From the NCBI GenBank assembly GCA_964016885.1, contig OZ024742.1:253208001-253272000 (forward strand): a stretch of DNA of 64,000 nucleotides. The letters are read 5' to 3'. Source of the stretch: Eledone cirrhosa (Eukaryota). Both the position numbers and the translations under genes were made by a program. This document shows positions 18,255 through 28,947 of this stretch, in pieces (the first letter of the stretch is position 1; each line of letters starts with the position of its first letter). The notes beneath the pieces are model-generated. The model was given only the letters and a program-made list of their open reading frames with translations, was not told the origin of the DNA and did no database searches.

Positions 18255-21200
18255 GCATATAGACATAGAATATTCGAAAATATTCTGTATGTTTATAATA
18301 AACATTTTGAAGACCTAATCGCTATAGAATAGAATACGTCACGTATTACAATTAGATTCTCGATAAAAGCAAGGGAAGTAATCTACGCGTTTCATTCTTG
18401 TTAGAAATCATCAGGACTACATATCCAGTGCTTTTATCGAGAATGACACAGCTAGAGACTTATAGAATACTTAGCTGTGTACAGGAACTGGTTTGAAAGA
18501 GCGGTTGCCGGTCCGGCAGAAATTAGAAATTGGAATAAATGCTCTGAAATAGCGATATATATGTGAATATAGACATAGAATATTCGAAAATATTCTGTAT
18601 GTTTATAATAAACATTTTGAAGACCTAATCGCTATAGAATAGAATACGTCACGTATTACAATTAGATTCTCGATAAAAGCAAGGGAAGTAATCTACGCGT
18701 TTCATTCTTGTTAGAAATCATCAGGACTACATATCCAGTGCTTTTATCGAGAATGACACAGCTAGAGACTTATAGAATACTTAGCTGTGTACAGGAACTG
18801 GTTTGAAAGAGCGGTTGCCGGTCCGGCAGAAATTAGAAATTGGAATAAATGCTCTGAAATAGCGATATATATGTGAATATAGACATAGAATATTCGAAAA
18901 TATTCTGTATGTTTATAATAAACATTTTGAAGACCTAATCGCTATAGAATAGAATACGTCACGTATTACAATTAGATTCTCGATAAAAGCAAGGGAAGTA
19001 ATCTACGCGTTTCATTCTTGTTAGAAATCATCAGGACTACATATCCAGTGCTTTTATCGAGAATGACACAGCTAGAGACTTATAGAATACTTAGCTGTGT
19101 ACAGGAACTGGTTTGAAAGAGCGGTTGCCGGTCCGGCAGAAATTAGAAATTGGAATAAATGCTCTGAAATAGCGATATATATGTGAATATAGACATAGAA
19201 TATTCGAAAATATTCTGTATGTTTATAATAAACATTTTGAAGACCTAATCGCTATAGAATAGAATACGTCACGTATTACAATTAGATTCTCGATAAAAGC
19301 AAGGGAAGTAATCTACGCGTTTCATTCTTGTTAGAAATCATCAGGACTACATATCCAGTGCTTTTATCGAGAATGACACAGCTAGAGACTTATAGAATAC
19401 TTAGCTGTGTACAGGAACTGGTTTGAAAGAGCGGTTGCCGGTCCGGCAGAAATTAGAAATTGGAATAAATGCTCTGAAATAGCGATATATATGTGAATAT
19501 AGACATAGAATATTCGAAAATATTCTGTTTGTTTATAATAAACATTTTGAAGACCTAATCGCTATAGAATAGAATACGTCACGTATTACAATTAGATTCT
19601 CGATAAAAGCAAGGGAAGTAATCTACGCGTTTCATTCTTGTTAGAAATCATCAGGACTACATATCCAGTGCTTTTATCGAGAATGACACAGCTAGAGACT
19701 TATAGAATACTTAGCTGTGTACAGGAACTGGTTTGAAAGAGCGGTTGCCGGTCCGGCAGAAATTAGAAATTGGAATAAATGCTCTGAAATAGCGATATAT
19801 ATGTGAATATAGACATAGAATATTCGAAAATATTCTGTATGTTTATAATAAACATTTTGAAGACCTAATCGCTATAGAATAGAATACGTCACGTATTACA
19901 ATTAGATTCTCGATAAAAGCAAGGGAAGTAATCTACGCGTTTCATTCTTGTTAGAAATCATCAGGACTACATATCCAGTGCTTTTATCGAGAATGACACA
20001 GCTAGAGACTTATAGAATACTTAGCTGTGTACAGGAACTGGTTTGAAAGAGCGGTTGCCGGTCCGGCAGAAATTAGAAATTGGAATAAATGCTCTGAAAT
20101 AGCGATATATATGTGAATATAGACATAGAATATTCGAAAATATTCTGTATGTTTATAATAAACATTTTGAAGACCTAATCGCTATAGAATAGAATACGTC
20201 ACGTATTACAATTAGATTCTCGATAAAAGCAAGGGAAGTAATCTACGCGTTTCATTCTTGTTAGAAATCATCAGGACTACATATCCAGTGCTTTTATCGA
20301 GAATGACACAGCTAGAGACTTATAGAATACTTAGCTGTGTACAGGAACTGGTTTGAAAGAGCGGTTGCCGGTCCGGCAGAAATTAGAAATTGGAATAAAT
20401 GCTCTGAAATAGCGATATATATGTGAATATAGACATAGAATATTCGAAAATATTCTGTATGTTTATAATAAACATTTTGAAGACCTAATCGCTATAGAAT
20501 AGAATACGTCACGTATTACAATTAGATTCTCGATAAAAGCAAGGGAAGTAATCTACGCGTTTCATTCTTGTTAGAAATCATCAGGACTACATATCCAGTG
20601 CTTTTATCGAGAATGACACAGCTAGAGACTTATAGAATACTTAGCTGTGTACAGGAACTGGTTTGAAAGAGCGGTTGCCGGTCCGGCAGAAATTAGAAAT
20701 TGGAATAAATGCTCTGAAATAGCGATATATATGTGAATATAGACATAGAATATTCGAAAATATTCTGTATGTTTATAATAAACATTTTGAAGACCTAATC
20801 GCTATAGAATAGAATACGTCACGTATTACAATTAGATTCTCGATAAAAGCAAGGGAAGTAATCTACGCGTTTCATTCTTGTTAGAAATCATCAGGACTAC
20901 ATATCCAGTGCTTTTATCGAGAATGACACAGCTAGAGACTTATAGAATACTTAGCTGTGTACAGGAACTGGTTTGAAAGAGCGGTTGCCGGTCCGGCAGA
21001 AATTAGAAATTGGAATAAATGCTCTGAAATAGCGATATATATGTGAATATAGACATAGAATATTCGAAAATATTCTGTATGTTTATAATAAACATTTTGA
21101 AGACCTAATCGCTATAGAATAGAATACGTCACGTATTACAATTAGATTCTCGATAAAAGCAAGGGAAGTAATCTACGCGTTTCATTCTTGTTAGAAATCA

Positions 21201-24200
21201 TCAGGACTACATATCCAGTGCTTTTATCGAGAATGACACAGCTAGAGACTTATAGAATACTTAGCTGTGTACAGGAACTGGTTTGAAAGAGCGGTTGCCG
21301 GTCCGGCAGAAATTAGAAATTGGAATAAATGCTCTGAAATAGCGATATATATGTGAATATAGACATAGAATATTCGAAAATATTCTGTATGTTTATAATA
21401 AACATTTTGAAGACCTAATCGCTATAGAATAGAATACGTCACGTATTACAATTAGATTCTCGATAAAAGCAAGGGAAGTAATCTACGCGTTTCATTCTTG
21501 TTAGAAATCATCAGGACTACATATCCAGTGCTTTTATCGAGAATGACACAGCTAGAGACTTATAGAATACTTAGCTGTGTACAGGAACTGGTTTGAAAGA
21601 GCGGTTGCCGGTCCGGCAGAAATTAGAAATTGGAATAAATGCTCTGAAATAGCGATATATATGTGAATATAGACATAGAATATTCGAAAATATTCTGTAT
21701 GTTTATAATAAACATTTTGAAGACCTAATCGCTATAGAATAGAATACGTCACGTATTACAATTAGATTCTCGATAAAAGCAAGGGAAGTAATCTACGCGT
21801 TTCATTCTTGTTAGAAATCATCAGGACTACATATCCAGTGCTTTTATCGAGAATGACACAGCTAGAGACTTATAGAATACTTAGCTGTGTACAGGAACTG
21901 GTTTGAAAGAGCGGTTGCCGGTCCGGCAGAAATTAGAAATTGGAATAAATGCTCTGAAATAGCGATATATATGTGAATATAGACATAGAATATTCGAAAA
22001 TATTCTGTATGTTTATAATAAACATTTTGAAGACCTAATCGCTATAGAATAGAATACGTCACGTATTACAATTAGATTCTCGATAAAAGCAAGGGAAGTA
22101 ATCTACGCGTTTCATTCTTGTTAGAAATCATCAGGACTACATATCCAGTGCTTTTATCGAGAATGACACAGCTAGAGACTTATAGAATACTTAGCTGTGT
22201 ACAGGAACTGGTTTGAAAGAGCGGTTGCCGGTCCGGCAGAAATTAGAAATTGGAATAAATGCTCTGAAATAGCGATATATATGTGAATATAGACATAGAA
22301 TATTCGAAAATATTCTGTATGTTTATAATAAACATTTTGAAGACCTAATCGCTATAGAATAGAATACGTCACGTATTACAATTAGATTCTCGATAAAAGC
22401 AAGGGAAGTAATCTACGCGTTTCATTCTTGTTAGAAATCATCAGGACTACATATCCAGTGCTTTTATCGAGAATGACACAGCTAGAGACTTATAGAATAC
22501 TTAGCTGTGTACAGGAACTGGTTTGAAAGAGCGGTTGCCGGTCCGGCAGAAATTAGAAATTGGAATAAATGCTCTGAAATAGCGATATATATGTGAATAT
22601 AGACATAGAATATTCGAAAATATTCTGTATGTTTATAATAAACATTTTGAAGACCTAATCGCTATAGAATAGAATACGTCACGTATTACAATTAGATTCT
22701 CGATAAAAGCAAGGGAAGTAATCTACGCGTTTCATTCTTGTTAGAAATCATCAGGACTACATATCCAGTGCTTTTATCGAGAATGACACAGCTAGAGACT
22801 TATAGAATACTTAGCTGTGTACAGGAACTGGTTTGAAAGAGCGGTTGCCGGTCCGGCAGAAATTAGAAATTGGAATAAATGCTCTGAAATAGCGATATAT
22901 ATGTGAATATAGACATAGAATATTCGAAAATATTCTGTATGTTTATAATAAACATTTTGAAGACCTAATCGCTATAGAATAGAATACGTCACGTATTACA
23001 ATTAGATTCTCGATAAAAGCAAGGGAAGTAATCTACGCGTTTCATTCTTGTTAGAAATCATCAGGACTACATATCCAGTGCTTTTATCGAGAATGACACA
23101 GCTAGAGACTTATAGAATACTTAGCTGTGTACAGGAACTGGTTTGAAAGAGCGGTTGCCGGTCCGGCAGAAATTAGAAATTGGAATAAATGCTCTGAAAT
23201 AGCGATATATATGTGAATATAGACATAGAATATTCGAAAATATTCTGTATGTTTATAATAAACATTTTGAAGACCTAATCGCTATAGAATAGAATACGTC
23301 ACGTATTACAATTAGATTCTCGATAAAAGCAAGGGAAGTAATCTACGCGTTTCATTCTTGTTAGAAATCATCAGGACTACATATCCAGTGCTTTTATCGA
23401 GAATGACACAGCTAGAGACTTATAGAATACTTAGCTGTGTACAGGAACTGGTTTGAAAGAGCGGTTGCCGGTCCGGCAGAAATTAGAAATTGGAATAAAT
23501 GCTCTGAAATAGCGATATATATGTGAATATAGACATAGAATATTCGAAAATATTCTGTATGTTTATAATAAACATTTTGAAGACCTAATCGCTATAGAAT
23601 AGAATACGTCACGTATTACAATTAGATTCTCGATAAAAGCAAGGGAAGTAATCTACGCGTTTCATTCTTGTTAGAAATCATCAGGACTACATATCCAGTG
23701 CTTTTATCGAGAATGACACAGCTAGAGACTTATAGAATACTTAGCTGTGTACAGGAACTGGTTTGAAAGAGCAGTTGCCGGTCCGGCAGAAATTAGAAAT
23801 TGGAATAAATGCTCTGAAATAGCGATATATATGTGAATATAGACATAGAATATTCGAAAATATTCTGTATGTTTATAATAAACATTTTGAAGACCTAATC
23901 GCTATAGAATAGAATACGTCACGTATTACAATTAGATTCTCGATAAAAGCAAGGGAAGTAATCTACGCGTTTCATTCTTGTTAGAAATCATCAGGACTAC
24001 ATATCCAGTGCTTTTATCGAGAATGACACAGCTAGAGACTTATAGAATACTTAGCTGTGTACAGGAACGGTTTGAAAGAGCGGTTGCCGGTCCGGCAGAA
24101 ATTAGAAATTAGGAATAAATGCTCTGAAATAGCGATATATATGTGAATATAGACATAGAATATTCGAAAATATTCTGTATGTTTATAATAAACATTTTGA

Positions 24201-28846: not shown

Positions 28847-28947
28847 GTTTATAATAAACAATGTTTATTATAAACATACAGAATATTTTCGAATATTCTA
28901 TGTCTATATTCACATATATATCGCTATTTCAGAGCATTTATTCCAAT
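28847..28947 (+). repeat. Terminal inverted partial unit of the array
   Basis: 28860-28947 is the reverse complement of 28759-28846. The palindrome tgtttataataaaca is duplicated at the turn; (TA)n follows to about 29190. Confidence 0.9.

Follow-up and report, generated by a model that had tools for sequence, protein, structure and literature searches.

The 64,000-nucleotide window analysed here (Eledone cirrhosa assembly GCA_964016885.1, contig OZ024742.1, positions 253,208,001 to 253,272,000) contains a long array of a 310-bp tandem repeat, encoding hammerhead ribozymes on the minus strand and bordered on both sides by (TA)n microsatellites. By sequence definition the repeat is a non-long terminal repeat (non-LTR) retrozyme, and the array is probably a single retrozyme insertion, generated by a Penelope-like element (PLE) enzyme that used both strands of a (TA)n target to copy a small RNA, probably a circle. 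The components of the insertion are listed below, with unit positions numbered from the predicted ribozyme cut and the two outer ends designated site A and site B.

17346..18256, no strand: (TA)n target microsatellite, left flank (Tandem Repeats Finder (TRF), sequence)
18257..28846, minus strand: long arm, 34.2 tandem 310-bp units, RNA sense minus, 3' end at site A
18267..18286, minus strand: 8-bp hairpin with UUCG loop, immediately 5' of site A
18356..18444, minus strand: first of 34 type I hammerheads (sequence, folds, Rfam HH9 alignment)
24069..24376, no strand: cluster of indels and substitutions in two adjacent units
28847..28859, no strand: central junction between the arms, with a 13-nt insert that duplicates unit sequence and lies by a small hairpin
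28860..28947, plus strand: short inverted arm, 88 bp, unit positions 78-165, without hammerhead, 3' end at site B
28922..28947, plus strand: "tail", 26 nt between site A (139) and site B (165), at one end only
28948..29189, no strand: (TA)n target microsatellite, right flank (TRF)

TRF located the array at 18245-28846, with a period of 310, 34.2 copies and 99% matches, and the 34 hammerhead-core anchors are spaced 309-311 bp apart. Twenty-eight of the 34 units are identical and six deviate; the unit has a GC content of 34%, and the longest ATG-initiated open reading frame (ORF) in a dimer spans 30 aa. These results confirm the periodicity, copy number, near-identity of units and lack of an ORF described in a first-pass annotation of the sequence, but the extent that it assigned to the array, 18255..28947, has to be divided, since the tandem structure ends at 28846 and 28847-28947 constitutes an inverted arm. 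The right end forms a perfect 94-bp inverted repeat (28759-28852 and 28854-28947), with the centre of the palindrome at 28853. Both outer ends of the insertion abut (TA)n, at unit position 127-139 on the left, where the last exact base lies 127 nt beyond the ribozyme cut and TA microhomology extends up to 139, and at position 165 on the right. The cut coincides with neither end, the junctions lying 127-165 nt beyond it. The hairpin at 18267..18286, whose stem is retained with altered sequence in older relatives of the family, is a candidate element for recruiting the reverse transcriptase (RT), and the cluster at 24069..24376 is possibly an assembly or polishing error.

In the first hammerhead, read on the minus strand, a 6-bp stem I (18420-18415 paired with 18383-18378) is prolonged by a 16-bp extension (18444-18429 with 18371-18356), the core consists of CUGAUGA (18414-18408) and GAAA (18393-18390), and stem III is the palindromic ACGCGU at 18390-18385, with the cut predicted from the sequence after GUA, at 18384/18383. 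All these elements had been recognized at first pass, as had the 4-bp stem II (18407-18394), though not the U.U mismatch at its base. Animal type I hammerheads usually combine a 6-bp helix I and a 4-bp helix II with a helix III that is short and palindromic, and are active as dimers (PMC4209133, PMC3088659). The unconstrained fold of two units is a double hammerhead in which both ACGCGU segments pair with each other, and a loose type I hammerhead descriptor matched one in 5000 dinucleotide shuffles of the unit. The Rfam search proposed in the first-pass annotation found nothing in the window that reached the gathering score, the only sub-threshold match being HH9 (19.2 bits, E 0.058), and folding z-scores (minus, -4.3; plus, -5.3) did not indicate a choice of strand.

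The first-pass annotation considered the array at its own locus and did not see that the repeat is dispersed across the genome. Counting exact patterns in the 3.0-Gb genome, we detected 16,614 occurrences of an invariant 24-mer of the unit, and 1,255 and 1,312 occurrences, respectively, of the junction patterns for sites A and B, which are lower bounds on the number of insertions and hence point to at least 1,312 insertions with PLE-type ends. Loci were sampled from 100 B ends listed on contig C1 and from the first 100 hammerhead matches; the A and B junction patterns demanded TA, so those samples are biased toward TA flanks. Among the 100 B ends, 90 had an inverted, A-ended partner, four were single arms, three met gaps, three extended beyond the fetched stretch and none was paired with a second B end, placing an inverted partner arm in 90 of the 94 B-ended insertions whose other end is visible. 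Twelve stretches selected by the hammerhead alone comprised nine A+B insertions, two single arms and one gapped locus. Each of the 91 complete two-armed insertions pairs an A end with a B end; the set includes the window, and two of its members, L055a and L055b, may be duplicate assemblies of a single insertion. The 310-bp family consists of dispersed two-armed insertions and is not a single-locus satellite.

Across these 91 insertions, the last exact base falls at 125-139 for site A (43 at 130, 27 at 139) and at 165-167 for site B. Site B lies 26-40 nt beyond site A, leaving a tail at one end only in every insertion (91/91), and the RNA 3' ends face outward in both arms. The arms have median lengths of 962 and 1,179 bp (maximum 14,079), an exponential distribution of lengths is not rejected (p 0.11), and 151 of 182 arms span at least two cut sites. 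Inner arm ends are scattered over the unit; with four of 182 near the cut, against seven expected, termination at the ribozyme cut, which a linear monomer template would produce, was rejected. Arm pairs stop at an identical unit position in 12 of 90 cases, a weak excess over the six expected. No ORF was found in the unit or inside any retrieved insertion. The repeat is tandem and non-coding, has a unit length within 150-450 bp, a GC content below 50% and no LTR, and occurs at multiple loci; the first-pass reading of it as a retrozyme holds on every sequence feature tested.

A degenerate motif with 5,608 matches identified older relatives with units of ~320 bp, 65-75% identical. At 30 loci (L168-L197) these have identical A and B ends, shorter arms and often decayed cores; older retrozyme subfamilies that share both ends also occur at L119, L121 and L134. 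In 10 sequences compared by eye and with RNAalifold, the long stem, the hairpin preceding site A and its enclosing stem appear to be retained in the older relatives with changed sequence. Old and young units alike retain a GC-rich 16-mer beyond site B, in which no conserved stem is obvious and which is a possible promoter element. One insertion, L043, has outer ends A and B plus an extra internal double inversion (four segments).

Nearly all of the 91 insertions are flanked by (TA)n; L037, flanked by AT-rich non-repeat sequence, is also the only one of the 12 hammerhead-selected stretches without TA at its 3' ends. A target duplication of ~12 bp was evident at the five informative sites, in which the target is not pure TA (12 bp at L034 and L104, 11-13 at L110, 11-15 at L037 and 8-15 at L128). 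Central junctions were scored against each locus's own unit in 78 of the 91 insertions, omitting 13 that were too short or mosaic: 47 display microhomology, 10 are blunt and 21 contain inserts, the long ones at L073 and L122 being likely artefacts. At least 3 nt are shared at 20 of the 57 insert-free junctions, compared with 6.8% for random joins. At L087 and L093 the left and right flanks repeat each other in inverted orientation, as if the target had been a tail-to-tail junction; the L087 flanks are the 3' end of a PLE family.

Variation among units bears on the template. The two arms agree in haplotype at 50 of the 55 loci that have two or more full units in each arm (36 omitted), against a mean of 7.5 and a maximum of 16 in 10,000 permutations; 23 haplotypes were distinguished, 17 of which occur once. 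A fixed variant private to one locus is present at 13 of 79 loci and, at L079, in 25 of 25 pieces. Unfixed differences within loci amount to 0.07% per base, in agreement with the young age proposed at first pass, or ~0.2 per unit, at which copying of a single unit would fix private variants near the observed rate. These patterns indicate that both arms of an insertion derive from one molecule, usually monomer-like and sometimes a mixed multimer, and a monomer circle is probably the usual template. Among the 792 pieces spanning the ribozyme cut, none has an unfixed indel there, evidence against jumping from end to end. A closed 340-nt contig, found once in each of three runs (depth 10-15), was rejected as evidence for circles, since a low-coverage tandem array gives the same result. 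Pairing was preserved by six of six fixed stem variants but by five of 16 unfixed ones (p 0.012), and none of 31 fixed variants lies in the hammerhead core, an absence that is not significant by itself (~1.5 expected); fixed variants concentrate at position 7, loop II and the basal U.U, which often becomes A-U. This avoidance of the core and retention of stem pairing provides modest support for a role of the ribozyme fold in propagation.

PLEs are characterized by insertion into microsatellites, an inverted copy truncated on its 5' side and a tail of 30-40 bp confined to one end (PMC8557442). The protein of an anole PLE (Poseidon PAc) cuts AT-rich DNA, extends both strands and initiates reverse transcription at a pair of neighbouring internal sites, between which the tail lies (PMC11167929). 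Given that the A+B ends, inverted 5' copy, tail and (TA)n bias of the 310-bp family match these hallmarks, PLE-type double priming very likely made the two-armed insertions, and the junctions would constitute direct genomic support for PLE mobilization of a non-LTR retrozyme. A PLE-retrozyme link had been proposed from co-occurrence (PMC7229834, PMC7761336) and from homology to PLE pseudo-LTRs (pLTRs) in Xenopus (bioRxiv 10.64898/2026.07.22.740005), and reverse transcription of circles by PLEs has been suggested for non-LTR retrozymes (PMC7229834).

In the mechanism that we propose, read-through transcripts would self-cleave as double hammerheads via the palindromic stem III, and the resulting monomers would be ligated into 310-nt circles. 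As the junctions suggest, a Neptune-like PLE protein (RT plus GIY-YIG) would make a staggered cut of ~12 bp in (TA)n, after which each target strand would prime reverse transcription at one of the two observed, internal end sites, A (125-139) or B (165-167). Consistent with the haplotypes, both cDNAs would circle the same template, passing through the cut, for a roughly exponentially distributed distance with a mean of ~1.5 kb. Repair would then join the cDNA ends head to head through the 1-7 nt of complementarity seen at the junctions, and later tandem DNA duplication probably extended very long arms such as that of the window. Whether each insertion is the fossil of a double rolling-circle reverse transcription, with two PLE RTs, primed on opposite strands of one cut microsatellite, copying the same 310-nt circle from two fixed sites, we regard as evenly balanced.

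The same genome harbors PLEs. Among 10,596 candidates for RT plus GIY-YIG elements, 150 were scored. RVT_1 and GIY-YIG are present in L153, L156 and L163 and a CX4CxxC linker in four of five PLE proteins; this linker and the C-terminal nuclease suggest that the elements are Neptune-like. L214 (G000:C3:199329800-199337300), of a family with 35,409 candidate places, is an autonomous PLE with the layout of the retrozyme insertions: it lies in (TA)n and contains a 1,257-aa open frame and a minimal hammerhead in its pLTR, and while one of its ends falls at site A, the opposite end carries an inverted arm that stops at site B. Its open frame had no RT or GIY-YIG match in Pfam, and its PLE identity rests on BLASTP against L153 (24% over 414 aa, E 7e-15) and Atlas features. 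One PLE family has two end sites ~60 nt apart (six and 10 of 16 loci). In the family of L156, L157, L162 and L165, the pLTR hammerhead shares the basal U.U of the retrozyme and contains the palindrome AGUACU; L165 likewise consists of two arms, whose ends are unequal. In the family of L153 (open frame of 938 aa), L154, L158, L160, L161 and L166, seven of seven sampled 3' ends stop at one site, at which no hammerhead was detected; both arms of L158 end alike, in contrast to the tailed PLE families. Comparison of the unit and an older relative with the PLE loci returned only neighbouring retrozyme-type insertions and TA-rich noise, the likeness of the unit to the L214 family at site A (both continue AUAUCG..UUUCA) was too short to count, and none of the 30 older-relative loci holds an element continuous with a PLE ORF.

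Two other hammerhead elements were encountered in this survey. A short (150-200 bp) separate element with a longer stem III, a basal U.U and often two inverted arms lies in (TA)n (L158:1683-1810, L161:8500-8700, L164:5630-5830, L178) and, having been met five times by chance, is probably very abundant. At L163:8800-9800, two 511-bp repeats parted by (TA)n each carry a hammerhead with a palindromic stem III, ACUAGU.

Several observations weigh against PLE copying of a circle. Seven of the 57 testable unfixed variants are in register between arms (one at L061, four at L074, two at L105): both arms of L074 (G000:C1:136719100-136726300) change haplotype after the outer two units, L061 has one in-register variant, and at L105 the haplotype changes in one arm only. 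The template of L074 and L061 appears to have been a mixed multimer, not a monomer circle; L074 is also the clearest sign of both arms copying one molecule. The lack of significance of the core-variant count belongs here as well, as does the location of every sampled family locus on contig C1. No pLTR homologous to the unit was found in the sampled PLE loci (L133-L167, L198-L216), a small fraction of the more than 10,000 candidate PLE places. Copies of the four sampled PLE families are 97-99% identical, making them older than the retrozyme, and PLE tails in this genome measure ~50-60 nt, against 26-40 in the retrozyme. The anole PLE used uncut RNA in vitro, its own hammerhead being dispensable (PMC11167929), and eight of nine Xenopus retrozyme dimers did not cleave (bioRxiv 10.64898/2026.07.22.740005). 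RNA circles and cleavage have been demonstrated for the retrozymes of coral, mussel and axolotl (PMC7229834), whereas for the 310-bp family they are predicted.

Some of these points would also fit PLE double priming on an uncut linear read-through multimer, with the hammerhead and circles incidental, which we consider unlikely but worth keeping in view. Unit-specific variants copied from such a multimer should appear in register in both arms, as the changes in L074 and L061 do; uncut RNA is the main in vitro substrate of the anole PLE (PMC11167929), and seamless crossing of the cut site is equally compatible with a linear template. The private variants fixed through both arms, however, demand a one-unit bottleneck, only one of the 57 unfixed variants is a single-unit variant in register, the other six representing two haplotype switches, and fixed variants respect the ribozyme stems; arrays copied in this way would, moreover, get shorter with every cycle. 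Repeated jumping of the RT from the 5' end to the 3' end of self-cleaved linear monomers would likewise yield multimers from one unit, and the haplotype switches at L074 and L105 could be such jumps. It is nonetheless highly improbable, given the absence of unfixed indels at the cut and of an excess of arm ends there, and because jumps between molecules would render most arms mosaic.

According to an alternative put forward in bioRxiv 10.64898/2026.07.22.740005, insertion of a short piece derived from a PLE is followed by local satellite amplification through unequal crossover; the best evidence for this comes from the longest arms. The 10.6-kb long arm of the window is a length outlier (p ~0.0007 per arm under an exponential distribution) in which one variant is common to units 10 apart, and in the 46-unit arm of L064/L065 variant patterns repeat after 27 units. 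On account of these duplicated blocks and the outlying length, later tandem DNA duplication probably lengthened the window's arm, to which local amplification likely applies. Of the two origins offered at first pass, rolling-circle copying and unequal crossover, both therefore likely contributed, the former supported indirectly by the haplotypes. As a general account of the family, local amplification is improbable: arms in both orientations span two or more cuts, their inner ends being random, their outer ends fixed and their lengths such as an exponential distribution can describe, and local expansion predicts mosaics instead of a single haplotype over two inverted arms. The odd indel cluster in two neighbouring window units, an insertion that L055 carries twice next to a gap, and a count of 34 taken from the assembly could be read to mean that the inversions or copy number are assembly artefacts, yet this is barely credible. 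The contigs of one public run, which may itself be the assembly's source, contain the unit at very high depth and six forward-to-inverted joints (depth 3.7-21), and assemblers do not generate fixed A and B ends, target duplications or locus-specific haplotypes.

In LINE-1 twin priming, two primed cDNAs are joined head to head via microhomology; the 310-bp family differs in its fixed, internal start sites, the lack of poly(A) and the two-armed state of nearly every insertion. The non-LTR retrozymes of coral, mussel and axolotl are likewise tandem, non-coding and low in GC, with 150-450-bp units and a type I hammerhead with a weak palindromic helix III, and axolotl HHR_Amex2, which cleaves more efficiently in dimeric form, also has a basal U.U in helix II; the accessible text is silent on inverted arms, fixed ends, tails and microsatellite targets (PMC7229834). 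With endonuclease-containing (EN+) PLEs (Neptune-like, Naiad), the family has in common the inverted 5'-truncated copy, the tail at one end and (TA)n (PMC8557442), and with anole Poseidon PAc the two adjacent internal RT starts downstream of a hammerhead and the extension of both strands (PMC11167929). Unlike EN+ PLEs, it has no ORF, both of its arms are multimers, and it does not resemble the sampled pLTRs of the genome. The Xenopus study, which interprets vertebrate retrozymes as non-autonomous PLE derivatives, reached the same partner class from co-occurrence and pLTR homology and favours local satellite-like amplification; its accessible text covers no mollusc and no junction anatomy (bioRxiv 10.64898/2026.07.22.740005). 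The literature searched, which did not extend to Repbase, subscription papers or supplements, yielded no description of retrozyme insertions with two arms and a tail, nor of haplotypes that point to a single template. Each part on its own is known, whereas their combination and the evidence at base level seem to be new.

The remainder of the window contains two broken LINE-type retroelements with RT-like open frames recognized by eye (34823-37905 and 41452-43861) and RT fragments near 59640-60068. TRF also identified a 2.4-kb stretch of ATG/GTG triplets (10764-13169), whose higher-order period is 195 bp, and 48-49-bp minisatellites (6033-6866, 8951-9082, 29804-29911, 33756-33871 and 39435-39594).

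The circle-plus-PLE model of animal retrozyme movement has so far rested on co-occurrence and pLTR similarity, and the 310-bp family also bears on how PLEs form their tail and inverted copies. PLE RTs are related to telomerase. With more than 1,000 near-identical recent insertions, the family offers start sites, target, duplication length and single-template signatures at base level, so that both retrozyme mobility and PLE tail formation can be put to the test on genomic data as well as in vitro, using defined RNA sites. If a minimal RNA of 310 nt recruits an RT and has multimeric DNA written into (TA)n from both strands, it would be a compact cis-element for PLE-based insertion. If double rolling-circle copying is correct, a viroid-sized RNA circle would be the direct transposition intermediate of a PLE parasite, a single two-strand priming event would explain both the PLE tail and the inverted copy, and other animal retrozymes should share an overlooked two-armed layout.

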